A model generated the notes under the pieces. The model worked only from the letters and a program-made list of their open reading frames with translations. It was not told where the DNA came from and searched no databases. DNA of 64,000 bases from an uncultured Fibrobacterota bacterium (GTDB lineage Bacteria > Fibrobacterota > Chitinivibrionia > Chitinivibrionales > FEN-1185), in the NCBI GenBank assembly GCA_963753345.1, contig CAVWBU010000018.1:1-64000 (forward strand), written 5' to 3'. Each line of letters opens with the position of its first letter. Position 1 is the stretch's first letter. Below, one piece after another: positions 6,132 through 32,029 of this stretch. A program made the position numbers and the translations under genes.

Positions 6132-6272
6132 GGCTAACGGTGAAGCTAATTTGCCCGACCAAGACTGCATATTCTATTCGCACACATCAAATGAATTCCT
6201 ACATGTAACGACTCCCTGCACTCGCCTGCCGCTCGCAACTGTGGAGGGTCAAGATTTAGCGACTTGTTGGTT
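6132..6272 (-). repeat. attC site, class E
   Basis: ggctaac..gctaat...ttagc..gttggtt; unique interior. Confidence 0.85.
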
Positions 6273-6523
6273 CTGCGAAAGGCCGGGCGGGATTCTTCTC
6301 TGATATCTTTTTGCCCGCCCAGTGTATTTATTCTTACGGCAGCCATCTTATTTCTGTTTCATCGCGCCATTCTTAATTTGCCACAGACGACGCGCAGTTC
6401 AGCTGCTATTGTTACTCTCTTTACCGTAATAAGAGCATCATCCGTATTGTTTTATCTTTTTCATGGCGCGATCTTAATTCCCTTTTGTCCTGGCTGCCGT
6501 GTCAATCGCCTTTTGCAAACCAA
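6138..6523 (-). other. Gene-less cassette, family 1 variant (different centre, different attC)
   Basis: Same arms as the 325-bp family; central segment replaced. Confidence 0.85.
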
Positions 6524-13518: not shown

Positions 13519-13650
13519 CGCCGCGCTAATATGCCTGACTACGACCGCATTTTCTCTCCGCAAACCACGAATCTTGTATAAAGAACCGACCGCCCGCAAA
13601 CCAAAGCTGTTTGCAAATGCGGAAGGTCATGATTTAGCGCGTTGTTAGGA
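13513..13650 (-). repeat. attC site, class A
   Basis: Class A consensus. Confidence 0.95.
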
Positions 13651-14260
13651 CATTTTATTTCTTAGATTTCGAAATGGTATCCAATAGAAAAGATAATTGC
13701 ATTTGACTGTTCTTTATAGGTGATATATGCACTTTGGGTCGATTTAAGATCATTTTGCATTTTATCGTTAGGGAAAATATAGCCAATATGAATATTGGGA
13801 CCATTATTCCTACTTTTACCATATCTTACTTCAGTTCCAACTCCTAAACTAAATGAATTATAAAAAGCATCATAATTACCAAACGTCATACCTTCTGAAT
13901 AACCATATTGAATATGTAAATACCCATTTACCCCATATGATGCGTTCAAATATGGCCTGAATATATTCTTATCTGATTTCTCCAAAATATATAGGTTAAT
14001 GCCAGTGTTCCAGCCGATCTTAGAGAAATAAGTACCAATAGCACCAAATAATGCAATTCTTGATATTGGTACGAATGAAACCTTAAGACCCAAAAAACCA
14101 CCGTAATTTATTCCCCATCCAAAACCGAGATCCAAAAACGGTTTATGATTCTTGGCGTCAACTTCTTTATCCGGATGTAGTTTCTTCAAGCTAGTATCAG
14201 ATTCAGTTTTAGCTGTATGTTCCTGTTGATAATTGTAACATTGATGTTTTCTAATTCTGA

Positions 14261-15903
14261 CCTGATTCCGTGAGATAAGGTTATTAAAAACAAATTGACG
14301 GCGTTGACAAGAACGAATATGGTTGCTAAGGCTTCTTGATAAGTTGTTGCCGGGGTGATTCCACTATGATTTGCGCTTCTGACCCCATGGTTGACAAATA
14401 CACTCAACGTGTCGGTGGCGACGTTTGTTTGGTTACGGGTCTATTTCCGTTTATTGCTCTCCTTAGGTCAGCCATCCGTGGCGAACGCCAGATACGTTTG
14501 CGTCCACGCTATGCGGAGTTGATTCCGCCGCGACAGGGCAAGCATCAACCGGCGGGCATGCGTTATCACGCGTGCTGCTATGTACATAAGATCCTGAATG
14601 ACCTTCCGCAATCTCCGGCGTGCAACTTTCTTACGCGGCACGTACCCCTTGTCGATTCCAACTTGGCCGCAGAGCCGCAGCATGTTGAACGCAAGAACCG
14701 CCAACGTCAACACCAATGCGTTGGTCGTGAACTTCCCGCTGGGAAGCCGCTCCAGCGCCATATCACTCTTCAGCTCCGAGTGAAACTGCTCGCTGGTGCC
14801 ATGATCCCGGTACGCTGCAATAACGTCGTCCGGGCCGGCGTTGCGTCTGCTCAGGCTCGTCCACCACGTGTGAACCTCTACATCCGGCAGCAGCAAGGCG
14901 TTTCCGTCGCGGTCGATTGTCCGTTCGATCACCTCGAACACAACGCGCATGTTTTCGCCGTTTCTTTCCCGTATTGTCTCACCAACGTACACGGTCTTGC
15001 CTTCACGAGGATGACGCCAGTCACCGAGCGCTTGAGCATCCACGAGCCATTCGTCAATAGATTCCCTGCGTATGTTCCGTTTGATTATGTAATCGACCTT
15101 TTCCTTGCGGCAGACTCGCATGTTTTCAATATCGTCATGTCCGGCATCAAGACGCACAAGGATCGAACGATCCGTTATTTTTCGAGCAAGGGCTATGGTC
15201 TTGCGCAGAAACTCCGGAGTTCCTTCCTGGCAATGTTGTTTCCCTTCGCGCAACTCCGCGTTCAGCAGGTAGCCTTCCACGCCTATGTAGGCAAGCATCG
15301 GAGAATATCCCTCGAACAACTTGTACGTGCAGCTTACGCCTTCCTTATGAGAACCACTGTTGTCAAAAGGAGATACGTCAGCGTCAATCGGAATATACGG
15401 TCCAAAGCAGGCGGTGAGCCGTGGCGCTGCTTTTTTCAACAGGGACGCCGAAGCGGAAAGGACTGCGTTTTGAACGGTCAGGCCCGTTTCGTCCATTCGC
15501 TGCCGCAGTGTAGCCTCGGAAGGAACCGCTTTCAATCCAAGCATCTCCTGAAAATAGTCGTCTTCACGAAACTGCTCGACCCCGTCAAAGTCTGGTTTGG
15601 CAAGACACAAAAGCCCCGTCATGGTCAGCAGCGCGTCCGCGGTGCTTATACTCCCGCTCTTCTTGTCCGGAGTAACCTGCGAAACACGCTCGCGCAAACC
15701 GGATCGCTCCGCAAGCATCCCGATCATTGCCATTCCACCATGGCTGGTCAGAAACTCGTCCGTCTCCGTGATTATCAACTTTCTCGGCTTTGGCATGACA
15801 CCTTCCGGGTGAATAATGTGAACTGCCATTTAGTCAAGCACCATTCACCCTTAATCTACACGAAAAATCATCAAAATGCCAAAGTTTTTCTCACGGATTT
15901 AGG
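14261..15903 (-). mobile_element. IS1380-family insertion sequence
   Basis: IRs cctgattccgtgaga / tctcacggatttagg; 5-bp TCTGA duplication confirmed against the uninterrupted copy. Confidence 0.95.
14468..15829 (-). CDS. IS1380 transposase
   Basis: TSHGG, IDAD, VRLDAGHD and YRDHGTSEQFHSELK motifs. Confidence 0.93.
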   Translation of the reverse strand: MAVHIIHPEGVMPKPRKLIITETDEFLTSHGGMAMIGMLAERSGLRERVSQVTPDKKSGSISTADALLTMTGLLCLAKPDFDGVEQFREDDYFQEMLGLKAVPSEATLRQRMDETGLTVQNAVLSASASLLKKAAPRLTACFGPYIPIDADVSPFDNSGSHKEGVSCTYKLFEGYSPMLAYIGVEGYLLNAELREGKQHCQEGTPEFLRKTIALARKITDRSILVRLDAGHDDIENMRVCRKEKVDYIIKRNIRRESIDEWLVDAQALGDWRHPREGKTVYVGETIRERNGENMRVVFEVIERTIDRDGNALLLPDVEVHTWWTSLSRRNAGPDDVIAAYRDHGTSEQFHSELKSDMALERLPSGKFTTNALVLTLAVLAFNMLRLCGQVGIDKGYVPRKKVARRRLRKVIQDLMYIAARVITHARRLMLALSRRNQLRIAWTQTYLAFATDG

Positions 15904-16079
15904 TCTGAGATATTCCTTTTCATCGTCTGTCCATGACATCGGGAGATCAAGTTTTAATGATTGAACAATAGAATCATTACACGGATTACACTTATCACAT
16001 AGGGTTGTATCCAATGTGGCGGCACAAACCTTTGCAATTAGCACAATAGACATAAGCGGTATTTTATTCATGTTTATTG

Positions 16080-16217
16080 TCCTAACGCCGCGCTAATATG
16101 CCTGACTACGACCGCATTTTACCGCCGCAAACCACCAATCTTGTATGAAGAGACAATCGCCCGCACGCCAAGGGGGTTTGCAAATGCGGAAGGTCATGAT
16201 TTAGCGCGTTGTTATGT
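16080..16217 (-). repeat. attC site, class A
   Basis: Class A consensus. Confidence 0.95.
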
Positions 16218-18247: not shown

Positions 18248-18571
18248 TTATTCTTGCGCTGCATATTCTGGTTTTCCTGTTATCTTCTGAATCTTAATCA
18301 ATTCCGTTGAAGGTATAATTTCTTTCCAATTTGTCTTTTTAAACGATACATACCAATTCATAATATCAATTGGCCATTCCCAAATGGTTACCGAATCCTT
18401 AATATATTTCCCTTTTTCTCCTATTGAATCTAGATATCCAGAGGCTATTTCAATTGCCTTCCCCATAGTTATTTTCGGGGTTACTGGATTATAATAATTA
18501 ATCTTTGGAACTTGAGATATACAGCCGATGAAGACGGCAGAAAACGCCAATATTATAATATTGTATTTCAT
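18248..18571 (-). CDS. Small lipoprotein, PepSY-like (cassette)
   Basis: Lipobox FIGC; ITMGKAIEIA...ITGK pattern; 5' end duplicated at window positions 2-64. Confidence 0.7.
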   Translation of the reverse strand: MKYNIIILAFSAVFIGCISQVPKINYYNPVTPKITMGKAIEIASGYLDSIGEKGKYIKDSVTIWEWPIDIMNWYVSFKKTNWKEIIPSTELIKIQKITGKPEYAAQE

Positions 18572-18615
18572 GTTTTGATTCCTGTTGTATTTCAATTTCC
18601 TGGTTTATTATTTAC

Positions 18616-18708
18616 GCATAACGATGAAGCTAACCGTTTTGGAGCACGTTCTTCGGAATCTTATATAATGTAAACGTGCGAGAAAACGAGTTTAGCGCCT
18701 TGTTGGTT
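18616..18708 (-). repeat. attC site, class C
   Basis: Copy of 1670-1762. Confidence 0.9.
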
Positions 18709-18946
18709 CTGCGAAAGGCCGGGCGGGATTCTTCTCCGATTTCTTTTTGCCCGCCCACTGTATTTATTCTTACGGCAGCCATCCTATTTCTGTTTCATCG
18801 TGCCATTGTCCACATCTTTTCGTGGTGCATGTCAATTTTGATTTAATCGATATCATTTCTTTAGGCCGCACGATGTGGCCTTTTTAATGGCGCGATCTTG
18901 ATTCTCAATATCCTGGCTGCCGTGTGTATTGCCTTTTGCAAACCAA
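18622..18946 (-). other. Gene-less cassette, family 1 (325 bp)
   Basis: Near-identical to 2001-2325. Confidence 0.9.
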
Positions 18947-19622: not shown

Positions 19623-19760
19623 GCCTAACGCCGCGCTAATATGCCTGACTACGACCGCATTTTCTCTCCGCAAACCACGAATCTTGTATGAAGAACCAAC
19701 CACCCGCAAACCAAAGCTGTTTGCAAATGCGGAAGGTCATGATTTAGCGCGTTGTTAGGA
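19623..19760 (-). repeat. attC site, class A
   Basis: Class A consensus. Confidence 0.95.
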
Positions 19761-19771
19761 CATTTTATTTC

Positions 19772-20533
19772 TTAGATTTCGAAATGGTATCCAATAGAAA
19801 AGATAATTGCATTTGACTGTTCTTTATAGGTGATATATGCACTTTGGGTCGATTTAAGATCATTTTGCATTTTATCGTTAGGGAAAATATAGCCAATATG
19901 AATATTGGGACCATTATTCCTACTTTTACCATATCTTACTTCAGTTCCAACTCCTAAACTAAATGAATTATAAAAAGCATCATAATTACCAAACGTCATA
20001 CCTTCTGAATAACCATATTGAATATGTAAATACCCATTTACCCCATATGATGCGTTCAAATATGGCCTGAATATATTCTTATCTGATTTCTCCAAAATAT
20101 ATAGGTTAATGCCAGTGTTCCAGCCGATCTTAGAGAAATAAGTACCAATAGCACCAAATAATGCAATTCTTGATATTGGTACGAATGAAACCTTAAGACC
20201 CAAAAAACCACCGTAATTTATTCCCCATCCAAAACCGAGATCCAAAAACGGTTTATGATTCTTGGCGTCAACTTCTTTATCCGGATGTAGTTTCTTCAAG
20301 CTAGTATCAGATTCAGTTTTAGCTGTATGTTCCTGTTGATAATTGTAACATTGATGTTTTCTAATTCTGAGATATTCCTTTTCATCGTCTGTCCATGACA
20401 TCGGGAGATCAAGTTTTAATGATTGAACAATAGAATCATTACACGGATTACACTTATCACATAGGGTTGTATCCAATGTGGCGGCACAAACCTTTGCAAT
20501 TAGCACAATAGACATAAGCGGTATTTTATTCAT
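19772..20533 (-). CDS. Outer-membrane beta-barrel-like protein (cassette)
   Basis: Signal peptide, alternating aromatic strands, C-terminal SIGYHF. Confidence 0.75.
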   Translation of the reverse strand: MNKIPLMSIVLIAKVCAATLDTTLCDKCNPCNDSIVQSLKLDLPMSWTDDEKEYLRIRKHQCYNYQQEHTAKTESDTSLKKLHPDKEVDAKNHKPFLDLGFGWGINYGGFLGLKVSFVPISRIALFGAIGTYFSKIGWNTGINLYILEKSDKNIFRPYLNASYGVNGYLHIQYGYSEGMTFGNYDAFYNSFSLGVGTEVRYGKSRNNGPNIHIGYIFPNDKMQNDLKSTQSAYITYKEQSNAIIFSIGYHFEI

Positions 20534-20541
20534 GTTTATTG

Positions 20542-20679
20542 TCCTAACGCCGCGCTAATATGCCTGACTACAACCGCATATTCTCTTTGCAAACCACAAA
20601 TCTTGTATGAAGAACCGACCGACCGCGAGCCAAAGGTGTTTGCAAATGCGGAAGGTCATGATTTAGCGCGTTGTTAGGG
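20542..20679 (-). repeat. attC site, class A
   Basis: Class A consensus. Confidence 0.95.
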
Positions 20680-21197: not shown

Positions 21198-21335
21198 CCC
21201 TAACGCCGCGGTAATATGCCTGACTACGACCGCATATTCTCTTTGCAAACCACGAATCTTGTATGAAGAACCAACCACCCGCAAACCAAGAATGTTTGCA
21301 AATGCGGAAGGTCATGATTTACCGCGTTGTTATGT
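21198..21335 (-). repeat. attC site, class A (with a compensatory base pair)
   Basis: Class A; gcggtaa/ttaccgc instead of gcgctaa/ttagcgc. Confidence 0.95.
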
Positions 21336-21579
21336 CTCCTTTTTGCATTTTATCTTTTCCGAATTGATTTGGTTTTGTCTTCATTAATCCGGTTTGGTGA
21401 ATACCGATTACCACGAGTCCCAGAATCAATCCGTAATCTCATTCCGATTTCTTGTCTTTCGTCTTCAATAATTCTGTCTGGTGAAGACCGATTCTAAGGG
21501 TTCAGGATCGTCCGGATATTATCCCCGAATTAATATTCTTTATCTTCTTTGATTTATTGGTTTTCATTTTGAGACATAA
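21204..21579 (-). other. Gene-less cassette, family 2
   Basis: gttatgtctc/gagacataac ends; no credible ORF; internal direct repeat. Confidence 0.8.
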
Positions 21580-21678
21580 CGATGGAGCTAATATGCCGGG
21601 CGCAATGGGTTGGCTTGATCTGATTGTATTTCTCCTCAAGCCAACCGCGCCCGGTCATGATTTAGCGACTTGTTCTTT
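21574..21678 (-). repeat. attC site, class F (105 bp, non-canonical core)
   Basis: gctaatatgccgggcgc...gcgcccggtcatgatttagc; ends gttcttt. Confidence 0.88.
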
Positions 21679-21933
21679 TCGCAAGGCGATTAGCAGCGAC
21701 GTACAGGAAGGTGCGACGCTGCTTTTCTTTGGTTTGGTCTTGAATAATTCTTTTCGGTTTCCTGGTTCAATTTATTAATTTTCTTCGCCGCCGCCGCCAT
21801 TGTCTTTCTTGATTCTCATGGCGCACAAGTCTTTAGCGCATGGATGCGCTTGAGATATATGATTGTCGGGCATAAAACTGTAAAATATCGGGAACATGGA
21901 GAACGACATGAGGAAGATTCCCGTGCAATGCAG

Positions 21934-22401
21934 TTAATCAAAGGAGCGGGAGCCTCTGGTTGGAACTCTCTCAAGCCGAATGTCCTTTCCCCAAAGTGCA
22001 ATAGGAAGCCCCAAAAATGATGCTTGGCCTGGTGCATAAATACGAATTCTTACTCCATCGGGAGAGACGTATTCCCAATATTGAACTGAAGCGGACGCGA
22101 TACCGTAGGAACCGTCATCTGATTCAGCGGTCATCTTAGGAATATTATAGGAATTAACAAATTCCTTGGCAAATTGCTCTGCCGACAGGTCCGTAACCTC
22201 AAACATTTTGTTAACAACGTCTCCAGGCCAGAATAAATATGCCAGAAGTAAAGAATTATCGAATACAAAGACTGCCTTGCTGGCACTCTCAAAGGAATAT
22301 GATCGGTACTTATCTTTATCAACAGATTCTTTTATTACAACCTTCCCGAATATCGATGAGTAGCGAAGGTCAATTAAACCAGTTGCCTCGGAGAGAGACA
22401 T
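21934..22401 (-). CDS. Hypothetical protein; possibly the frameshifted C-terminus of 22442-24001
   Basis: Frame is open ~20 codons upstream (…VKFKGFYIG) and overlaps the end of the upstream gene. Confidence 0.6.
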   Translation of the reverse strand: MSLSEATGLIDLRYSSIFGKVVIKESVDKDKYRSYSFESASKAVFVFDNSLLLAYLFWPGDVVNKMFEVTDLSAEQFAKEFVNSYNIPKMTAESDDGSYGIASASVQYWEYVSPDGVRIRIYAPGQASFLGLPIALWGKDIRLERVPTRGSRSFD

Positions 22402-22441
22402 TCCAATGTAGAAGCCTTTAAACTTAACCGAGGTTTGTCGG

Positions 22442-24001
22442 CTACTTGCTTCCTGGGCTAATTAACCTACAGAGGACAATTTTATCATCGACAACAGGAT
22501 TGCCATAATTTCTGGATGATTGGAAGTACTTTAAGGCCTCCGGAATATTTTTTTGCATGTCGATTCCGTAAAAAGAAGCGTTTGCAAGTTGATAAAATGA
22601 TTCTGATATTGACGAGTTGAGGCCGGAGGTATCGATAAATAATCTTTGCGCTGATGGAATGATTGAATAGGCGTCAGTGAATTTCCTAAAAGTTACCAGG
22701 GCTTTCTTGAAATATTGGCTGGTCATAAGGTCGTGTGCTTGTGAAAGAAGTAATGAAGTTGGAATAGCGGCAAGACTGTCTTCTACTCTTTGTTTTGCTT
22801 GTGCAACCCTTAAACTGTCATTCCGGTGCTCGACGGCGAGTTGCATAATTGTTTCTAGGGAATCCAGATGGGAAGCAAGCAATAGAGCAGCGTTAGGTAT
22901 TTGGTCGATGCCAATTTTGCATAATTCATTATACTTGCCTTTTATTGATTTAACCTCATCGAGAGATGAAAGTGAAGTGTACTGGCTATTCTGTAGTGCT
23001 ACCCATTTTACGAATAACCGGAGTTTCAGGGAATTAAAAGCCTTGGTCTGGCTTCTGGTTACATCAATTAGTGAGGTATATAATTTATCGAGTTCGGACA
23101 TCAACGAAAATAGGGTTTCAGAATTCTCGGGAAGGTTTTTGCCTAATTTATCGGCGAATACTTTGAAGTTTTTAGCAGATTCCCTTTTAGTCACCCAGAG
23201 AGTATTGATTTTCCGAAATGAATAGGATATATAAGCTTTTGCTCGAAATGGAGCAAAGGAAACATTTTGGATGTCTAGGAATGTCTTTTTGTCAAGTGAC
23301 GCATCATTGAACCCAGTATTACTGCAAAATACACCGTCTAAGGAAACGCCGATACAAACACTAGGAAAAGATGGAACAAAGAGATCTGCCCCAACGGTCG
23401 TAAAAAGGCCTGCGTTAAAGAAATTCGACGCAGGAGCCTGAAACGTTGATGTCGTTGGTTCTCCTCCAAGAGTGATATTAGAAGAGGTTGTTGTCTTTTG
23501 ATAATAATAAATATCATGGTTCAGAGCAAGCCCTGCTCCGAAAAATAGGTCGCAGAAGGACAGCGGGGTCATGTGGCCTGAAATGTAGGTGGTATACAAC
23601 AGAGGAATATATTGTACCTGTGGACTTTCGACAAATTGCCAATTCATGTTGTCTACGTTGTCATAATAGGATACGGTGGCTTGCTTGGCCTTTATGGTAT
23701 TTATCGGCAGGATTTCGGCGGACCAAGCGAGATTAAAGTAAGACGATGGATACAATGCCAAAGTAATTGTTCCGGTGGGACCAATTCCGCTCAAAGAAGA
23801 ATATTCATGATAATTAGGATTCAGTTGAAACTCGTAATTTGCTAGGCCCCCTGATAGGCGAATATCGACATATGGAATTGAAAACATTGATGTGCCAGCA
23901 TTGCACAGAGAGGGAGCAAGCAGGAGCAGAAATTGAAGAAGGATTCGGCTCGGTGTTTGCTTAAAACCATATGACATGTTTAGAATTTCTTTGGAATACA
24001 A
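22442..24001 (-). CDS. Secreted or outer-membrane protein with beta-rich N-half and Sel1/TPR-like C-half
   Basis: Signal peptide; YQLANASFYGIDMQKNIPEALKYF Sel1-like repeat. Confidence 0.65.
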   Translation of the reverse strand: MYSKEILNMSYGFKQTPSRILLQFLLLLAPSLCNAGTSMFSIPYVDIRLSGGLANYEFQLNPNYHEYSSLSGIGPTGTITLALYPSSYFNLAWSAEILPINTIKAKQATVSYYDNVDNMNWQFVESPQVQYIPLLYTTYISGHMTPLSFCDLFFGAGLALNHDIYYYQKTTTSSNITLGGEPTTSTFQAPASNFFNAGLFTTVGADLFVPSFPSVCIGVSLDGVFCSNTGFNDASLDKKTFLDIQNVSFAPFRAKAYISYSFRKINTLWVTKRESAKNFKVFADKLGKNLPENSETLFSLMSELDKLYTSLIDVTRSQTKAFNSLKLRLFVKWVALQNSQYTSLSSLDEVKSIKGKYNELCKIGIDQIPNAALLLASHLDSLETIMQLAVEHRNDSLRVAQAKQRVEDSLAAIPTSLLLSQAHDLMTSQYFKKALVTFRKFTDAYSIIPSAQRLFIDTSGLNSSISESFYQLANASFYGIDMQKNIPEALKYFQSSRNYGNPVVDDKIVLCRLISPGSK

Positions 24002-24008
24002 AGCTTTC

Positions 24009-24902
24009 TCACTCTAATTGAAACGATATTTCTACGGTGGTTTGCACTTTGACGGGAACACCCTTAATCCTACCGGGCTTGTATTCCCACCTTGCGATGG
24101 CCTTTCTAACTTCGTCGGATAACGCTTCGTTCGGTGAGCTAATGACGTTGATATCTGATACTTTGCCGTTCTGGTCGATAACAAGACTGGTTTTTACAAT
24201 TCCAGAGATACCTTGGTCTTTCACAAATTCGGGATAAAAAGGCTGAATTTTCTTAATGGGAACTGGCTTTTCGTCTACCGAATCTTTATCGTAGATTACA
24301 TTTCTATCAATTCCTATGGTATCTGGATTGCTATCGGATGCTGTCCAGCCTGGGCGTTTTGTAGCTAAAGGGGCTTCAGGTAATTTGTCAGTATCGCTCG
24401 GAGAATCTTTTGCGATGTTATTTTCGTTTTCAGGTGCGCTATTTTGACTCGGTTCAACTGGACTATTTTCGCTTTCAGATTGCGCATTGTCATTTGTTAT
24501 GTCGGCCGGCACTTCTTTTGACGTGCTGGAGACAATCATTTTCCTGTTTTCAAGTTGTTTGACCAAATGGTCAAATAAGACGTCGGTCTTCATTCTATCG
24601 GCTAAAGACTGATTGTTGTACTGGTCAATGATGTCACTAACTTTAACCAAGGTCATCGAGAATGTAAAATGCTCTTTAGGAATTATGGCGAAATTGTCAG
24701 TGACAACATGAAAAAAGCCAAGGAATAGGAGAACACATACGAATATAAAGATCGCAGCAATGGATGATTTTACTTTGTTTGATGGCTTGTCTTGGACTTT
24801 CGTTTCTGGATGCGCACATTCATAACACAAATGTTGCTCTTCTGTACCGTAATTGCCTAATGCACCTATGTCTTTACCACATTTGGAACAGACACTTGCC
24901 AT
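24009..24902 (-). CDS. TonB-family protein (N-terminal Zn ribbon, TM, C-terminal TonB_C)
   Basis: PFYPEFVKDQGISGIV...IDQNGKV...WEYKPG...GVPVKV. Confidence 0.88.
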   Translation of the reverse strand: MASVCSKCGKDIGALGNYGTEEQHLCYECAHPETKVQDKPSNKVKSSIAAIFIFVCVLLFLGFFHVVTDNFAIIPKEHFTFSMTLVKVSDIIDQYNNQSLADRMKTDVLFDHLVKQLENRKMIVSSTSKEVPADITNDNAQSESENSPVEPSQNSAPENENNIAKDSPSDTDKLPEAPLATKRPGWTASDSNPDTIGIDRNVIYDKDSVDEKPVPIKKIQPFYPEFVKDQGISGIVKTSLVIDQNGKVSDINVISSPNEALSDEVRKAIARWEYKPGRIKGVPVKVQTTVEISFQLE

Positions 24903-24913
24903 AAAAAACCTGC

Positions 24914-25393
24914 CTAATCCTGAATTTCAGATACGGTCTTCTGGAAAATATTGATTGGTGACAAGCGTCTTACAGGCGCTATTGAATTGCGAATAGCGGA
25001 TAGTAATTTTTTACCCTCAAGGTGGTCAAAATCGGAATCGGTCAAAAAACTTGTATCAACCTTTCTTATTTCGTCGAGTTGGCTGCATAGGAACCAGACT
25101 TTGGGGGTACCACTTGTGAACGAATATTGGAATACGTCTTTTCTACTGCCGTATCCGATTGAGCTATGTTCCAATACCATTATTCTGAATTTAATGACTC
25201 TTTGCAATGTTGCGTTTTGTGTGCTATTTTCAGTGAAATACATATACATCCAAAACGGTTGAGCATCTAATGTCCCAGGGTGAAAATCGAGAAAGGAGAA
25301 AGAGAAATATCTACAACCGCTATCAATCCATTCATCTCTCATTTCCTCAATCCAGCGCGGTTCTCCGGGTTCTGTAGGATAAAGCATGTCCAT
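24914..25393 (-). CDS. Hypothetical protein (first gene of the 4.1-kb cassette)
   Basis: 159-aa ORF, co-oriented and tightly packed. Confidence 0.7.
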   Translation of the reverse strand: MDMLYPTEPGEPRWIEEMRDEWIDSGCRYFSFSFLDFHPGTLDAQPFWMYMYFTENSTQNATLQRVIKFRIMVLEHSSIGYGSRKDVFQYSFTSGTPKVWFLCSQLDEIRKVDTSFLTDSDFDHLEGKKLLSAIRNSIAPVRRLSPINIFQKTVSEIQD

Positions 25394-25666
25394 AAAGATT
25401 TCTTTCCAATGTGTATTGATTAAATCGGAATTCTTATCGCTGCCACGATGGCAGCGATTTTCTTGTGCGCCATGTTTGTATTATACTTTCTTTTCTTCGG
25501 CGGCGGCTATCTATTTTAATCGTTCAAATTCATTTTTGCTAAATCGGATTTCCCGGCACAATGCCTGCATTTACGCCCGCCAGAGTGCCGCCTTGAATTG
25601 CTTTTGTAATATTCTTTTTATTTTGCATTAATCTATCGCCCAGGATGGGCGATTTCTCGCCTTGCA

Positions 25667-25771
25667 AAAGAACGATGAAGCTAATATGCCGGGCGCAATG
25701 GGTTGGCTTGATCTGATTGTATTTTTCCTCAAGCCAACCGCGCCCGGTCATGATTTAGCGACTTGTTCTTT
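25667..25771 (-). repeat. attC site, class F
   Basis: aaagaac...gttcttt; copy of 21574-21678. Confidence 0.88.
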
Positions 25772-25841
25772 CTGCAAGGCGATTAGCAGCGACGCGCAGG
25801 AGGCGTGGCGCTGCTTCTCTTTTATGGGATACCACGAATAT

Positions 25842-26885
25842 TTAATTTCTGCCTAATAATGAAACTGTCGAGCTTGTAAGGTCCACTAGATATTCTTGTC
25901 GGTTAATTCCCAGATTAAATATGACTTTATTTTTCGCATCAATCTTTAGGCATCTAGGGTCTTTAGTATCATCAATTTCCAAACTGTTAAAGCAGTCATA
26001 GGGGTCTTGCGGAACCCAAATTATGAAATATTCGTGTGTTGCTTTCTTATACCCAATGCAACTCCCTCTGAAAAAGACCCATACTTTATAAGCTCTATTT
26101 TCTGATGAGTCAATTACATCGCCCTTATTAATAGATGTTTCTTTGCACAGGTTTTCTTTGTACGTTGAAAAAGAATATTCAACTGTTGAATTGGATTTAA
26201 TTTGATTATAAATACGCGGATTATCTGCCAACCATTTTTTGCGAGCGTTTATTGATGAATTAACATCCAGCTCACCATCCTGCTTTTCAAAGTAGCCTGA
26301 TTCCTTAATTTTCGATTCGAGGAATGACAATATATTTGGATTGGCAGACACTTTTGCTGGAATTTCGCCAAGCTTTGTTTCGCCCGTGGCAAAATAAATT
26401 TGGTACTCAATTTGAAAGGTATCTTTTGAAAGAATGGAAAAGAGCACGAACGAACCGAATTCTGCGCCACTTCCGCTGGTATGACATAGGTATGATACAT
26501 AGGGCATATTATCAATTATCGCAAATTTAACGCTATCAAAGGAATGACATGAGTTTTCGTAGCCACTTTTAAAGACTTCCAGCCAGTCATTTGCGAAGGA
26601 AGACAAGACAACCAATTTCCATGGACAAGCCGAATCTATGGTCGCTGCAATATATTGCCGGTCTGCATACGATAATGTTTTCGTAACGGCTGGTTTGCGA
26701 GAGTATTTCAAAGTAACAACTGAGACAGCTTCCTTCCTCTGTAATTGTTTTGCCTGAATCTTGGGTGATTTCGTAGTATCCGGTTGGTCAATGTCACCAG
26801 CCTTGCTATTTGTAGATAGACAGACTGCTGTTGCTAAAATGGTAATGGTAAAATGGGTTAAGGAATAAGTCAACTTTCTAGCCAT
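25842..26885 (-). CDS. Secreted hypothetical protein (cassette)
   Basis: Probable start MARKLTYS with gagg RBS; signal peptide. Confidence 0.7.
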   Translation of the reverse strand: MARKLTYSLTHFTITILATAVCLSTNSKAGDIDQPDTTKSPKIQAKQLQRKEAVSVVTLKYSRKPAVTKTLSYADRQYIAATIDSACPWKLVVLSSFANDWLEVFKSGYENSCHSFDSVKFAIIDNMPYVSYLCHTSGSGAEFGSFVLFSILSKDTFQIEYQIYFATGETKLGEIPAKVSANPNILSFLESKIKESGYFEKQDGELDVNSSINARKKWLADNPRIYNQIKSNSTVEYSFSTYKENLCKETSINKGDVIDSSENRAYKVWVFFRGSCIGYKKATHEYFIIWVPQDPYDCFNSLEIDDTKDPRCLKIDAKNKVIFNLGINRQEYLVDLTSSTVSLLGRN

Positions 26886-26916
26886 AAAGCAAAACCTCTG
26901 TTTGTCGATTAAATGG

Positions 26917-27192
26917 TTATTCGTAAGCGTATGTACCGTCTGGCTTAACAAACGCAAGTGCTATTTTTTCTGCTTCCGATTCTAAACCGAGGTCATGGTT
27001 AACCCAATTCCATGTCTCTCTAATGAGCGTGTACGTTCCTCTTCCCCCGGCATATTTATCGCCGTAAGAGGTAAGAAAGTTGTTTCTGTTTAAATGCTCC
27101 GCAAGTTCTTCCCCGGACATTGTCATTTTGTGTTCATTAAGAAAGGCTCCTAATTGCCAAACATAGTACTTTGTTGAATTAATTGAAGACAT
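26917..27192 (-). CDS. Small protein with a recombinase-type HTH-like motif (cassette)
   Basis: EELAEHLNRNNFLTSYGDKY resembles IAxxLNxxGxxTxxGxxW; ggag RBS. Confidence 0.55.
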   Translation of the reverse strand: MSSINSTKYYVWQLGAFLNEHKMTMSGEELAEHLNRNNFLTSYGDKYAGGRGTYTLIRETWNWVNHDLGLESEAEKIALAFVKPDGTYAYE

Positions 27193-27477
27193 AAACAACT
27201 CCAAGGATAAGGTTTATTGATGCAAAGTTTATTCTAAACAATAGCGTGTTGTTCATCAAGACTTCACTTCTCGCCTAATCTCAAATTCATTATTTGTCTT
27301 AAATTTCCTGGCGCAATTCCCGCCATTTAAGCCCCTCAGAGCGCCATTCTTAATTTCTTTCGGCACAATGCCTGCCATTTAAGCCCACCAGAGTGCCGTC
27401 TCAAGTTGCCTTTGTATTATTGTCCTTTCTATTTTGTATTAATCCATCGCCCAGGATGGGCGATTTCTCGCCTTGCA

Positions 27478-27570
27478 AAAGAACGATGAAGCTAACCGTT
27501 TTGGAGCACGTTCTTCGGAATCTTATATAATGTAAACGTGCGAGAAAACGAGTTTAGCGCCTTGTTGGTT
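27478..27570 (-). repeat. attC site, class C
   Basis: Copy of 1670-1762. Confidence 0.9.
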
Positions 27571-27808
27571 CTGCGAAAGGCCGGGCGGGATTCTTCTCTG
27601 ATTTCTTTTTGCCCGCCCATTGTATTTATTCTTACGGCAGCCATTCTATTTCTGTTTCATCGCGCCATTGTCCACATCTTTTCGTGGTGCATGTCAATTT
27701 GGATTTAATCGATATCATTTCTTTAGGCCGCACGATGTGGCCTTTTTAATGGCGCGATCTTGATTCTCATTTTCCTGGCTGCCGTGTGAATTGCCTTTTG
27801 CAAACCAA
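27484..27808 (-). other. Gene-less cassette, family 1 (325 bp)
   Basis: Near-identical to the other copies. Confidence 0.9.
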
Positions 27809-27940
27809 CGCCGCGCTAATATGCCTGACTACGACCGCATTTTCCCGCCGCAAACCACGAATCTTGTATGAAGAACGGACCACCCGCGAATCAATGCTGT
27901 TTGCAAATGCGGAAGGTCATGATTTAGCGCGTTGTTAGAA
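27803..27940 (-). repeat. attC site, class A
   Basis: Class A consensus. Confidence 0.95.
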
Positions 27941-27954
27941 ATTAAATTTAATTC

Positions 27955-28344
27955 TTAAGCCATATTTATGTTTTCATTGCATTTCGGACAAATAAATTGC
28001 TTTTCAATTCGTTCTTTATTTTCAAGATATATTTTCGTTTTACAATTCGGACAAATAACACTTTCCGGAAGATAATTTAAATCTTTTCCGCAAAATCGAC
28101 ACACCACCGCCTCTCTTTTAACTAATTCTGCGCAAAAAAGACATTTTTTATTTTCTCCTGACTCAAGTTTAATTTGATCAATTTTACTATCATCTTTTTT
28201 CGCAATCATTGCAGCAATAAAACCGATAAGAGGGCTTAAAAGTAATGCTAGAAAGAAAAATCCAATTCCTGATCTGCCTTTTGAATTTGCATAAACTCCG
28301 CAAAGAATAGAAAGGACAAACCAACCAACAACAAACATAAACAT
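27955..28344 (-). CDS. Membrane protein with C-terminal zinc ribbons (cassette)
   Basis: Two TM helices around KGRSG; CLFCAE...CRFCG; CPNC/CPKC. Confidence 0.85.
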   Translation of the reverse strand: MFMFVVGWFVLSILCGVYANSKGRSGIGFFFLALLLSPLIGFIAAMIAKKDDSKIDQIKLESGENKKCLFCAELVKREAVVCRFCGKDLNYLPESVICPNCKTKIYLENKERIEKQFICPKCNENINMA

Positions 28345-28373
28345 ATTGCCTCCTTAATTATTGAATTTCAAAT

Positions 28374-28478
28374 TTCTAACGGTGAAGCTAATATGCCGGG
28401 CGCAATAGGTTGGCTTGATCTGATTGTATTTTTCCTCAAGCCAACCGCGCCCGGTCATGATTTAGCGACTTGTTCTGC
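28374..28478 (-). repeat. attC site, class F
   Basis: ttctaac...gttctgc. Confidence 0.88.
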
Positions 28479-28754
28479 TGCGATAATCTCCTGTGGCGCG
28501 ATTAATGTCTTTTTTGTTGTTTCAATGTCCCACGCACCCACTCGCCGTACGCGCCTAATATATCGCCACCCGACGGAAGCCACTACGGAGTCTTCAGGAC
28601 ATGACGGGTGGCGCAACCGTCATGTAAAGCGGGCATGGCGCGGCTGCGTGTGTTGTTCGACGAGACTGGGCTTCTTGCGCGGGCAAATGTAACGAAATCA
28701 ATAGGAAGCCTGTAAAATAATTTACATAAGCAAATACATTAATTCATACTACAC

Positions 28755-30020
28755 TCATTTTATTACAAAGAATGACGACGTCAGTTTAGTATTACAGCCA
28801 GAAATAGACAAAAAGTACATACCAGTTGAAAGCCTTGACCTAGAAATATTAAGAATGCCATAACGAGCATCATGTCTAGCAGAATAAATCTTTCGACCGG
28901 CAGTATTGAAAATCTCGACGGCAAAGAGTTCGTTAGACGAATTTGGTAAGGATACTACAATCTTGTTTGAAGTGACGTTGAGTCTGAACCCACTGGCAAA
29001 TGTTTTCTTTCTAATCAGACTGGCGCTCGTCATACTTGGGGGCAGCGTCCAAAAGACATTATCCATTGTTAATATCTCTCCCGTAACGAATGGAGCCATA
29101 CTAACTTCAAGGAAATAATCGACATTGCTTAAGTCGCACGTTGCAGCCCATGCGGAAAGGGGAAGTACCAAATCATGCCATTTGCCGTCACCTAAAAAAC
29201 CAACAGATGAAGCGCTTATCCAATTCTGAGCACTATGCGTATAGTTTTCAACATTCATGACGAAATCTGTAGCGACTGTACTTTTCGCAGACACATGAAG
29301 TGTGCAATTCGCATAGGCCGACATATCGATGCCGACCAAAGCCCCGCCTGGAAAATTTGCCCATCCGAAACCGCCCCAGCCTACGTTTCCAGCCGTAATT
29401 GCTATCGCATGAGAAGCTCCATTTTCTCCTAATGAATCAGTAGAATCAATTGAACAGGTATTAGACCACGCAATAAGCTGGACGGTAGCATTTGGGGGAG
29501 TAACGCTCATTCTTGTGCGTTCAAAGAGTCCAAAAACAGGAGGTAGCGTACACAAAGCAGTTATTCGAAAAACCACATTAGGTCTATCTTGGCCAAACAC
29601 GCGAGCCGTAACAGTTCCCTTTCGACCACATTGAAAAAACATTCCGGCATAGGCAGCATCAGTTCCTAATATTCGCAATGGATTGGGGCTTGCATTCCAT
29701 GTCTTGCCGCTGTCGAGTGAAATTGATAATGAACATTGGACAAATACCGATGTGTCTTGCGGAACAGTAAAACGTATCCGACAATCTCTGCTTGATCTTT
29801 GTTGCAAGAGGCCATTGACATCGTACCATGAACTATCGCTGTTCCAAATAGTATCCACAGAAATTGGAACAGTACCAGATCCGCTATTGGCCTTTACACC
29901 CGCCTGGAATGTAAAGGCTACGGTCTGACCTGTATCTTTGAAACAAACTGATTGGCCAAAACACACGCTGGAGTAGGCAAGAAACAATAAGAATGTAGCT
30001 TTGAGGCTGGAGAACATATA
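28755..30020 (-). CDS. Secreted protein with carbohydrate-binding-like domain and T9SS-like C-terminal sorting domain (first cassette)
   Basis: Probable start MFSSLK after a G-rich RBS; WGGFGW...DMSAY...DGKWHDLVLPLSAW; CTD IFNTAGRKI...LSTGMYFL. Confidence 0.75.
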   Translation of the reverse strand, partial: YMFSSLKATFLLFLAYSSVCFGQSVCFKDTGQTVAFTFQAGVKANSGSGTVPISVDTIWNSDSSWYDVNGLLQQRSSRDCRIRFTVPQDTSVFVQCSLSISLDSGKTWNASPNPLRILGTDAAYAGMFFQCGRKGTVTARVFGQDRPNVVFRITALCTLPPVFGLFERTRMSVTPPNATVQLIAWSNTCSIDSTDSLGENGASHAIAITAGNVGWGGFGWANFPGGALVGIDMSAYANCTLHVSAKSTVATDFVMNVENYTHSAQNWISASSVGFLGDGKWHDLVLPLSAWAATCDLSNVDYFLEVSMAPFVTGEILTMDNVFWTLPPSMTSASLIRKKTFASGFRLNVTSNKIVVSLPNSSNELFAVEIFNTAGRKIYSARHDARYGILNISRSRLSTGMYFLSISGCNTKLTSSFFVIK

Positions 30021-30316
30021 CCCCCCCTTCGATTGCAAGTTTATCAGAATATTCTTTTGGCGTTTGTTGAACACCATATTATACTGAAATAATTCTGGTT
30101 TGTCCAGAGTATATTAAGACAAAGATATGCATATTGAATTTGCTTTCAACTTAAAATCCCGCGCGATTCCTTTTGCCCAGGCTTGTTGTACTAACTATTG
30201 CATTATTGCCTTTTAATAATGTCTTTTCTTATTAAATTATTTCCTTTAATTAGTTTCTTTCTCGCGCCACATTCCTGCGCGCCTCTTTTTAATAAGCGCG
30301 CATCTTATTTGACGCA

Positions 30317-30355
30317 GCAGAACAGATATTAGATATCAAACAACATATTGAATAT
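30317..30355 (-). other. attI site (crossover G|TTCTGC at 30323/30322)
   Basis: cgcagcagaac is the reverse complement of the first cassette's gttctgctgcg; no attC follows; lies upstream of intI. Confidence 0.8.
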
Positions 30356-30459
30356 TTGTGCAGAAGGCATATCCAATATTATATTAAACGATATATTCAA
30401 TATACCGTCTCAGATGCACAATGGTGGTATTCATCTGCCCCTTGAAAATGCCATGGGCT

Positions 30460-30716
30460 TGAACGGATATAACATCTTTGCTTCACAACTGCCGCTCCAA
30501 GGGTGCGCGCTTGTGTTTAGCCAATTCCAAATTTTTACCCTCTCCGTGCCGCGACCCTTGGAAGTACCCGAAGGGGTAGAGAGGGGCGGGGTGAGGTTGT
30601 TTCGGTCTTGCCGCAGGTCCCACCACGCTGCACCCCGCGAAGCTCCTAAAGGCATTTTGATTTTATCATTTATAAATTGTAAAAGTCAACTGTCGGATGG
30701 ATACTTTATCAATACA
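30460..30716 (-). repeat. Intergenic repeat module M3 (second copy inverted at 61685-61859) with an internal REP-like insert
   Basis: Long blocks match the reverse complement of 61685-61859. Confidence 0.85.
30660..30689 (-). promoter_or_regulatory. Candidate cassette promoter Pc
   Basis: TTGACT-18 bp-TAAAAT with an extended -10 TG, facing attI. Confidence 0.5.
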
Positions 30717-30733
30717 TCCCGGAGGATATCGCC

Positions 30734-32029
30734 ATGAACTCCGTTGTCCCTTCCTCGTTCTGGCAGTCGTATACCGCAACACTCCAAAAACTAGGTATTC
30801 CTTATCCCAAAAGCAAGTTTTATGTCCTGTGGGTAAAGCGCTTTGCTGCGTTCTTGAATGGCGTGCCTTTTGAGCAGGCTTCTCAGGAAATGGTTTTGGC
30901 ATTCCTTAATGGTCTTGAGAAGGACGAGCAGATTGCCGATTGGCAGGTGGAACAGGCGCGGCACAGCATCGAGATCCTTCTCAACGAACACCTCAAGCTT
31001 AACCTCCGGGAATCCGGTCGGCTCCAGGAGAGTTTCACCGATTCGGTTGACGACAGTGAAAAACTGCTCAAGGTTCATGGCGGTCTCATCAAGCGGTTTG
31101 CGTCCGAAATCCGGGTACGCCACTATTCGATACGGACGGAAGACGCGTATCTGTTTTGGATAAAGCGGTTTCTTTCCTTTCACCTGCTTAAGAATCCCGA
31201 AAACCTCGGGGCTCCGGAAATCAGGCGGTACCTCACGTATCTTGCGGAAAAGCGGAAAGTTTCCGCCTCGACGCAGAATCAGGCGCTCAACGCCATTGTT
31301 TTTCTTTATTCCCAGGTGTTAAAACAGAATCCCGGTGACTTTGCCGATTTCTCTCTTGCCAAGCGGCCTGTTCGCGTGCCCACGGTCCTTACCAAAGACG
31401 AAACCAACCGGCTTCTCGAAAGGCTGGACGGTGTGTGGCGTGTGATGGCCGGGCTCCTGTGGGGCGCCGGGCTGAGGGTGATGGAATGCGTCCGGCTTCG
31501 GGTGCAGGACATAGACTTTGATATGCAGCGGATAATCGTCCGGGACGGCAAGGGCGCCAAGGACAGGATCACCATGCTGCCCGCGCGGTTTGTTGCGCCG
31601 CTCAGGGAGCAGCTTGCGAATGCGAAAAAGTTGTTCGCCGGGGACCGGGCCGCTAAGATTGCGGGAGTGTATCTTTGGGATTCAATCGAGCGCAAGTTTC
31701 CGAACGCGGCGAGGGAATGGATATGGCAGTATGTTTTCCCGTCCGAAAAGCTTTCGGTTGACCCCCGCAACCGCACGGTCCGGCGGCACCACCTCGACCC
31801 GAACGTGCTCCAGCGCCGCATCAAGCAGGCCGCGCTGGACGCGGGCATTGCCAAGCGCGTGAGCTGTCACACCCTGCGTCATTCCTTCGCCACGCACCTC
31901 CTCAAGAACGGCGCCGACATCCGCACCGTGCAGGAGCTTCTCGGCCATTCCGATGTGTCAACAACCATGATCTACACCCACGTCCTCAACCGGCCGGGCG
32001 TGCCGGTTCCGAGTCCGGCTGATGCTTAG
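30734..32029 (+). CDS. intI: Integron integrase (long form with extra N-terminal SAM-like domain)
   Basis: GLRVME, GKGAKDR, HTLRHSFATHLL, LGH and TMIYTH, plus the IntI-specific insert VYLWDSIERKFPNAAREWIWQYVFPS; ggagga RBS. Confidence 0.97.
   Translation: MNSVVPSSFWQSYTATLQKLGIPYPKSKFYVLWVKRFAAFLNGVPFEQASQEMVLAFLNGLEKDEQIADWQVEQARHSIEILLNEHLKLNLRESGRLQESFTDSVDDSEKLLKVHGGLIKRFASEIRVRHYSIRTEDAYLFWIKRFLSFHLLKNPENLGAPEIRRYLTYLAEKRKVSASTQNQALNAIVFLYSQVLKQNPGDFADFSLAKRPVRVPTVLTKDETNRLLERLDGVWRVMAGLLWGAGLRVMECVRLRVQDIDFDMQRIIVRDGKGAKDRITMLPARFVAPLREQLANAKKLFAGDRAAKIAGVYLWDSIERKFPNAAREWIWQYVFPSEKLSVDPRNRTVRRHHLDPNVLQRRIKQAALDAGIAKRVSCHTLRHSFATHLLKNGADIRTVQELLGHSDVSTTMIYTHVLNRPGVPVPSPADA

Follow-up and report, generated by a model that had tools for sequence, protein, structure and literature searches.

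How integron cassettes originate is an open problem, and Loot et al. (2017; PMC5371416) describe the process that makes them as 'largely unknown'. The question is raised again by a 64-kb window, the start of contig C18 (CAVWBU010000018.1) in the 4.5-Mb draft genome of an uncultured Fibrobacterota bacterium (here G000; G001 is a sister species). An initial annotation of this window proposed that large cassettes with cargo are built on the same end-paired scaffold as gene-less ones, and that the empty cassettes are vectors that capture DNA. The locus is a complete chromosomal integron, with an integrase gene (intI), an attI site and an array of about 30 minus-strand cassettes. Two of these cassettes carry long matched non-coding arms, a leader and a trailer on either side of their genes. 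The architecture and conservation of these arms, compensatory changes in their pairing, their reuse around unrelated cargo, an empty form and movement of the units are observed here and in related DNA; an effect on recombination is what we infer from them. With moderate confidence, we read the arms as an outward extension of the attC stem that would act in cis on DNA as a reusable 'handle' scaffold.

Three cassettes of the array end in a 97-nt attC of one class, F, and their limits (21580-25672, 25673-27483 and 28380-30322) coincide exactly with the AA|C junctions of these sites (G|TT on the coding strand). The first two, X1 and X2, bear the arms and are laid out as follows.

21580-25672, minus strand: cassette X1 as a whole, with its class F attC at 21578-21674, trailer at 21675-21933 and leader at 25394-25672
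21934-22401, 22442-24001, 24009-24902 and 24914-25393, minus strand: the four open reading frames (ORFs) of X1, that at 24009-24902 with a TonB C-terminal domain
25673-27483, minus strand: cassette X2 as a whole, with its class F attC at 25671-25767, trailer at 25768-25841 and leader at 27205-27483
25842-26957 and 26917-27204, minus strand: the two ORFs of X2
27446-27484, minus strand: invariant 39-mer that opens the leader, X2 copy (R' core, 10-nt stem extension and 8-bp hairpin)
25635-25673, minus strand: the same 39-mer, X1 copy, its first 17 nt pairing with 21672-21689
27308-27402, minus strand: two M hairpin modules in the X2 leader
25553-25594, minus strand: one M hairpin module in the X1 leader
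25462-25507, minus strand: leader halves of the nested stems of X1 (13-mer at 25462-25474, GC 10-mer at 25498-25507)
21787-21829, minus strand: trailer halves of these stems, both of which form in the minimum-energy fold of the circular junction
21690-21730, minus strand: trailer hairpin (GCAGCG...CGCTGC) adjoining the end stem on its inner side; on the plus strand, a T run comes after it

The arms set the class F cassettes apart from their neighbours. Leaders in the 18 ordinary ORF-bearing cassettes measure 9-58 nt in 17 cases and 137 nt in one, with trailers of 0-78 nt, whereas in the three class F cassettes the leaders measure 245-279 nt and the trailers 74-280 nt; in X1 and X2, both leaders are 279 nt long and the trailers 259 and 74 nt. 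The end helix of X1 and X2 runs to 17 bp with one bulge, compared to 8-11 perfect bp in the terminal repeats of 21 ordinary cassettes. As first annotated, X1 and X2 have homologous ends, with 120 nt of leader at 88% identity and 152 nt (55 nt of trailer plus the attC) at 93%; beyond these ends they have nothing in common, and their cargo is unrelated by tblastx. The four genes of X1, separated by 7-40 nt, and the two of X2 are packed tightly enough that hidden internal attC sites have no room. The 39-mer is identical in the four copies found by BLAST (X1, X2, a cassette on G000 contig C24 and one on G001:C40), with the remainder of the arm 78-90% identical. The M module has a 6-bp stem with 97% of cells paired and two pairs changed on both sides, a score attained by 0 of 500 shuffles. 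The trailer hairpin is kept in X1, X2, C24, the metagenomic L035 cassette and an empty unit described below, and it folds in every model.

The third class F cassette, X3, is differently built.

28380-30322, minus strand: cassette X3, with its class F attC at 28378-28474, trailer at 28475-28754 and leader at 30078-30322
28755-30077, minus strand: the X3 ORF, 440 aa, with a type IX secretion system (T9SS) sorting tail

Its arms are long (leader 245 nt, trailer 280 nt), but its terminal repeat, at 11 bp, is of the ordinary kind, and the arms show no homology to those of X1 and X2, with which it has the attC class alone in common. The annotation's extended terminal repeats and single scaffold for all three cassettes thus hold for X1 and X2 and fail for X3. 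The repeats it quoted are present in the sequence, the sole offset being the partner of 28492-28501, which lies at 30261-30270 rather than 30262-30271. About 130 nt of the X3 trailer (28523-28656) is a copy of a GC-rich interspersed genomic repeat found at five other loci on contigs C15, C16 and C49. Directly before the ORF is a promoter-like site matched at 11 of 12 positions.

The arms of X1 and X2 recur around other genes. BLAST against 81 genomes of the order found them in this genus only: at a second, integrase-less attI-like site of G000 (C24:64042-66029), enclosing a two-gene cargo that includes HEPN, and in the sister species (G001:C40), where a first cassette encodes proteins of 169 and 491 aa, the latter with ankyrin repeats. 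A search with a 26-nt leader pattern added seven peat or bog metagenome contigs. The cargo falls into six classes (X1; X2; C24 with L039 and L040; G001:C40 with L038; L035 with L037 and L034; and L036), among which tblastx gave strong matches within classes and none across classes at E<=1e-3. All six hold at least two genes, and L035 holds six in 4.7 kb. The annotation had suggested searching for the same arms around unrelated cargoes, and these six classes are what that search returns. Homologous ends around six unrelated cargoes imply that new cargo is somehow placed between the matched arms. One of the metagenome contigs, L034, is duplicated in inverted orientation about position 2180, probably through misassembly at a cassette rich in hairpins.

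The L035 cassette lies directly after an attI-like sequence and its 84%-identical L037 twin after a class A attC; likewise, the C24 cassette follows an attI-like sequence and its twins in L039 and L040 another attC. In all five, the junction is exactly G|TTCTTTTGC. The same cassette in different upstream contexts with an identical junction indicates that these large, arm-bearing units move as cassettes from site to site. The attC class is not tied to the arms, in that the L035 trailer leads into a 69-nt attC of another class and X3 has the class F site with other arms. M modules number 0, 1 or 2 with the same cargo, making the arms mosaic. The arms were found at attC and attI junctions only, always cut at G|TT and with no target duplication, and in this they do not conform to miniature inverted-repeat transposable elements or foldback elements. 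Sites resembling attI with an F-type first cassette and without an intact intI lie at L010 10031-10110 (C24:66030-66110), L035 7640-7760 and L022 4828-5030; C24 and L035 lack the gene altogether at this place, and in G001:C40 it is reduced to a remnant of 100 nt. These three loci are integrase-less arrays that retain attI.

The scaffold also exists without cargo. The third cassette of the complete integron of G001 (L024:7463-7810, on G001:C39) is 348 nt long and consists of the leader start, one M hairpin, the trailer hairpin, the end stem and the attC, with nothing more. Its end stem, GTTATTTTGCAAGCCGC / GCGGCTTGCGAAAATAAC, differs from that of the loaded family, GTTCTTTTGCAAGGCGA / TCGCCTTGCGAAAAGAAC, at three pairs, all three compensated on the other arm and two of them beyond the R box; its leader hairpin is one pair shorter, on both sides. 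This pattern indicates that end-stem pairing has been kept by compensatory change. A covarying stem and conserved junctions (here the G|TT cuts) were what the scaffold proposal had called for, and both are present, as is an empty form.

Inside the end stem, some of the cassettes pair further. We scored nested pairing, with the terminal helix excluded, as the best chain of collinear perfect stems of at least 8 nt and compared it to 500 dinucleotide shuffles of both flanks; earlier scores (a chain with stems of at least 7 nt, and the flank-flank duplex energy) were too noisy to discriminate and were replaced. The L035 chain of 49 nt was reached in 0/500 shuffles (maximum 26) and comprises four GC-rich stems of 9-11 nt (41 nt), near-equally spaced on both arms, plus an AT-rich 8-mer. 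G001:C40 has a chain of 29 nt (0/500), and X1 one of 23 nt (6/500; the 13-mer alone was reached in 2/500). X2 and C24 have no nested chain. In X3, the near-end 10-mer alone is credible (39/500), the rest of the chain being AT-rich and asymmetric. Of the two cassettes annotated as having nested repeats, X1 therefore passes against shuffled flanks and X3 is marginal. Both nested stems of X1 are conserved in G001:C40 despite the different cargo. The stem sequences of L035 are wholly different, in a layout like that of X1 and of a gene-less cassette family, E: GC helices with A-rich loops between them. In leader and trailer alike, the coding strand of these spacers is rich in A. Cofolds of leader and trailer come out 3.3 to 9.6 standard deviations below shuffles (z of -9.6 for L035, -4.6 for G001 and -5.3 for X1), figures that include local hairpins. 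Folding the circular junctions of X1 and L035 under DNA parameters gave, on either strand, a minimum-energy structure that contains the attC hairpin together with the 17-bp extension and every nested stem, and the computed energy of the class F hairpin went from -30.2 to -43.3 kcal/mol with the extension.

The arms might instead have no function and be left over from a single ancestral cassette, its interior since overwritten through illegitimate recombination and its repeats persisting by descent or by hairpin-templated repair. The missing nested stems of X2 and C24, the marginal repeats of X3, the mosaic arms and the interspersed repeats that landed in the X3 trailer and beside attI would all fit such a history. 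We nevertheless consider it very unlikely, given that every end-stem difference is compensatory, that the 39-mer is invariant while other arm parts have diverged, and that different stem sequences form the same nested layout in three lineages.

The gene-less E family offers a comparison within the array.

27484-27808, minus strand: E, a gene-less structured cassette comprising a class C attC and a 242-nt body that forms one long nested hairpin
1676-2000, 2001-2325 and 18622-18946: further E copies
6138-6523: E variant with a different centre and attC (E6138)

When the five copies are aligned, four are near-identical and one differs in its centre and attC. The E fold has z = -4.9 as DNA and -5.3 as RNA, with 0 shuffles as good, and there is no minus-strand ORF of at least 50 aa. 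Its end helix is partly like that of F (GTTnnTTTGCAA..GGC, agreeing at roughly 12 of 17 positions and bulged at the corresponding point), and its arms are otherwise unrelated, which makes E a sister scaffold rather than F without its cargo. The resemblance first annotated between the ends of the loaded cassettes and the gene-less family is accordingly confined to the end helix, and the abundant E units, once taken as empty forms of the loaded cassettes, belong to a different, related scaffold; no E unit with cargo occurs among the seven copies seen. The E arm pattern is present in 3 of the 81 genomes, all in this genus. With several near-identical copies, no ORF of that length and relatives only in close kin, E conforms to the Vibrio type of paralogous non-coding cassette. 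Short peat contigs that cover just the E unit have a word depth near 100, against 3-7 for neighbouring cassettes, which is only a hint of high copy number because the depth sums over organisms. A G002 contig (C310) considered as a loaded E, and E6138 considered as a deletion product, were both withdrawn: the contig ends 50 nt past the arm and matches the E6138 centre, giving no sign of a long ORF.

Further non-coding elements occur in this genome. A gene-less cassette on contig C26 (L011 11270-11528; C26:289272-289525) consists of two M modules and a hairpin and is 91% identical over 104 nt to the M pair of the X2 leader, so leader modules appear to exist also as a free-standing cassette. Another gene-less family, with internal direct repeats, occupies 21204-21579 and C26:292002-292288, with 80% identity between arrays. 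At about 35 sites in G000 (for example, C47:51646 and C35:75361), a genome-wide repeat has GTTG(A/G)TTTGCAAGAAAG in the loop between its GC stems, nearly matching the start of the E and F leaders (GTTGGTTTGCAAAAGGC); the likeness could be a shared host-factor site or coincidence.

Pairing between leader and trailer could also take place in the transcript, where it would delimit the multi-gene mRNA inside a long transcript of the array, stabilize it, insulate it or direct its processing. An mRNA is single-stranded throughout, making kilobase-range pairing easy, and the A-rich coding-strand spacers, the covarying M modules in the leaders, the promoter-like site of X3 and the RNA fold of the E body are all compatible with this. 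The outermost helix, however, includes the R'/R'' cores and abuts the attC exactly, tying it to the recombination site rather than to transcript ends. The one inner mismatch of the E helix would be a G-T wobble on the non-coding (recombining) strand only, in 5/5 copies. Promoter-like and terminator-like sites show no overall enrichment (29 versus 22.3 +/- 4.0, and 9 versus 9.4), and no Rfam family matches. We therefore view an RNA role as distinctly unlikely. Wobble-type mismatches in general were set aside as a means of telling the DNA strand from RNA, being too few (one in E, three in the E6138 centre and one in M) and pointing in opposite directions.

In the handle reading that we favor, leader and trailer are two halves of one long imperfect palindrome centered on the attC. 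In the excised circle, the R''/R' stem would be prolonged outward by the conserved 17-bp helix with its one bulged base and, in some lineages, by a further two to four GC-rich helices of 9-13 bp with A-rich internal loops between them, closing the cargo into a loop. In the array, where an attC hairpin lies on either side of the cassette, such pairing could place both at the base of a single stem. Such a handle might stabilize attC folding and help two sites to meet, which would matter for long multi-gene cassettes in particular. Loot et al. (2017; PMC5371416) report that excision is lower for cassettes of at least 1,500 bp when an attC folds poorly, and on the strength of this result a handle could be useful to long cassettes. 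The scaffold, comprising the 39-mer, the M repeats, the trailer hairpin and the end stem, is inherited as a unit, and the cargo between its halves has changed repeatedly.

Several points weigh against this reading. Five public sequencing runs, none of them of RNA, are listed as containing this DNA, all at small shares, and the contigs from public runs contain no unambiguous circle or excision joint, their parts without cover being uninformative; the joints that go back fall in repeated class A attC sites, and one skip joint has a side of <30. X2 and C24 have the end stem without nested stems, which can therefore be dispensed with. For leader and trailer to pair across 2-4 kb, the entire cassette must be single-stranded, a length beyond that of usual lagging-strand gaps, and in the array the extension at an attC requires a neighbouring cassette of the same family. 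All helices are perfect Watson-Crick, making folding as DNA indistinguishable from folding as RNA. Among the copies, L038 duplicates G001:C40 and is probably from the same organism as G001, and 26 nt of the 39-mer served as the search pattern and are identical in the metagenome matches by construction.

Cargo proteins have homologues at non-integron loci of G000, as the initial annotation had anticipated. The 276-aa protein of L035 belongs to TIGR02147 (Fsuc_second; 262 bits), with 17 matches in G000, and the 425-aa protein of the same cassette is up to 57% identical to a G000 homologue. The Fsuc_second family membership, like the T9SS sorting tails, agrees with a host in Fibrobacterota, Chitinivibrionales. 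The 491-aa protein of G001 is 52% identical to a homologue on C32 and the 440-aa protein of X3 51% identical to one on C41; the TonB-C protein of X1 (46%) and a 217-aa protein of C24 (45%) also have G000 homologues. A 519-aa protein of X1 has no homologue in 80 other genomes of the order, and PADLOC gave no matches for nine cargo proteins.

The capture of such genes by an empty cassette was the initial proposal: self-pairing empty cassettes would come first, and DNA inserted in their central loop would make any operon mobilizable by IntI in one step. The reuse of one scaffold around six classes of cargo and the empty version in the sister species speak for it, as do the constant position of the cargo (between the M/spacer part of the leader and the trailer hairpin) and its derivation from host-lineage families. 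A single insertion into a contiguous scaffold is also more parsimonious than adding two matching arms each time. The borders between arm and cargo, however, show no insertion scar, target duplication, GTT core or attC remnant, and no half-loaded intermediate or internal recombination site was found at them. No capture enzyme or mechanism is evident in the window. Empty F-type units number one against ten loaded copies, and no loaded counterpart appears among the seven copies of the high-copy E empties. A loop-closing hairpin is, moreover, a classic substrate for replication-slippage deletion, which would give empties from loaded units, and the single empty unit could be such a deletion product. 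Arm reuse and an empty form thus stand, with no signature of insertion, and we regard capture by pre-existing empty shells as doubtful. That the scaffold is a cassette-making vehicle, in which either the empty unit or a contiguous trailer-attC-leader palindrome acquires a host operon and deletion at the hairpin foot regenerates the empty form, likewise seems unlikely to us.

By pattern and pairing, we located 29 attC sites in 1-30400, which fall into classes A, A2, B, C, D, F and H; a covariance model was abandoned, the MAFFT alignment of the classes being poor. The sites are repeated imperfect palindromes bounded by ..AAC and GTT.., with paired inner boxes, and for class F a hairpin fold was computed. 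Most are of the 130-nt class A; others include 86-nt, 85-nt and 97-nt (class F) sites, and attC lengths range from 69 to 138 nt. Each of the 29 units has G|TT limits and carries a complementary R'/R'' of its own. The units at 13519-16085 and 19629-20547, with common ends, had been considered as a shared scaffold, a candidate rejected in that they are copies of the same cassette, the first with a 1.64-kb insertion of higher GC (about 14261-15903) that carries a 453-aa ORF and is possibly an insertion sequence.

The recombination functions of the integron lie beyond X3.

30323-30410, minus strand: putative attI region, with the first cassette joined at ...ATATCTG|TTC, AT-rich repeats ATATTGAATAT and a homologous attI in G001
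30734-32029, plus strand: intI, integron integrase of 431 aa with an N-terminal extension of about 117 aa (NCBIfam TIGR02249; Pfam Phage_int_SAM_4 and Phage_integrase)

The product matches TIGR02249 at 454 bits (cutoff 265), as expected of an integron-type tyrosine recombinase; it is the single intI of G000 by tblastn, and its best matches by tblastn against genome contigs are about 52% identical and in other phyla. The extension (30734-31084) has a second match to a SAM-like domain, Pfam giving two stretches, and is common to part of the relatives, with tblastn alignments beginning at residue ~9 in some and ~118 in most; it could bind extra DNA such as the arms. The array has a GC content of about 40%, against 55-60% in the flank, and runs to the contig start, with a continuation on the end of contig C26. 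Positions 2-65 are 100% identical to an internal stretch of 64 nt (18560-18623), and the array was probably broken or collapsed by repeats in assembly. Between attI and intI, 30410-30740 belongs to a structured repeat interspersed throughout the genome, with 48 matches in G000, and is missing at that place in G001 and present twice in tandem in G002 (L026); near the C24 cassette, the same repeat (L010 7898-8041) adjoins a truncated attC, an arrangement suggestive of insertion into the hairpin. It was at first a candidate for an integron part or intron end, an idea dropped on finding the genome-wide matches.

How does this scaffold relate to known systems? Like sedentary chromosomal integrons, the locus has an integrase, an attI, cassettes cut at G|TT and imperfect-palindrome attC sites whose own R' pairs with R''. 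Unlike them, it has pairing that runs at least 10 nt past the 7-nt R box and then nested helices to about 200 nt into each arm, arms of 74-280 nt, multi-gene cargo and one scaffold reused for unrelated cargo. Paralogous non-coding cassettes are known in Vibrio chromosomal integrons (Boucher et al. 2006; PMC1382264), and E and the empty F unit resemble these in being ORF-less with close relatives only in related species, E also in being multicopy in one array. Unlike the Vibrio type as outlined there, the non-coding cassettes here share their architecture with gene-carrying ones, and the empty F unit shares sequence too. The DUF1874 motif (Weinberg et al. 2017; PMC5737381) is a multi-stem element of consecutive intergenic regions proposed as a possible unusual attC; it has no Rfam match in 1-31000 and is not reported to form split arms around cargo.

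Two further comparisons concern mechanism. The group IIC-attC intron model, which reportedly addresses how a gene joins an attC and adds the attC at the 3' side only, asks the same question but does not predict matched leader and trailer arms. Apart from one chance match to a long non-coding RNA, Rfam gave no match at E<=1 in 1-31000, including group II introns, and no reverse transcriptase domain was present in ten ORFs scanned. In rRNA operons, leader-trailer stems join complementary segments kilobases apart, act in RNA and are cut by RNase III; the arms similarly enclose a functional part between distant complementary segments, but their stem is continuous with a DNA recombination site. We found no description of matched leader-trailer scaffolds common to unrelated cassettes in full-text searches of the open literature.

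The locus provides a natural series, in which one conserved scaffold occurs once empty and six times loaded with unrelated host-lineage operons. It makes two questions testable: whether integrons can carry large operons by virtue of an extended attC handle, and whether cargo can be exchanged within a fixed scaffold. If either is true, the view that a cassette is 'one ORF plus a 60-140 nt site' would change, and cassette-finding software, which assumes minimal flanks, would be affected. Should the scaffold prove to be a cassette-making vehicle, it would offer a concrete route for de novo cassette formation.

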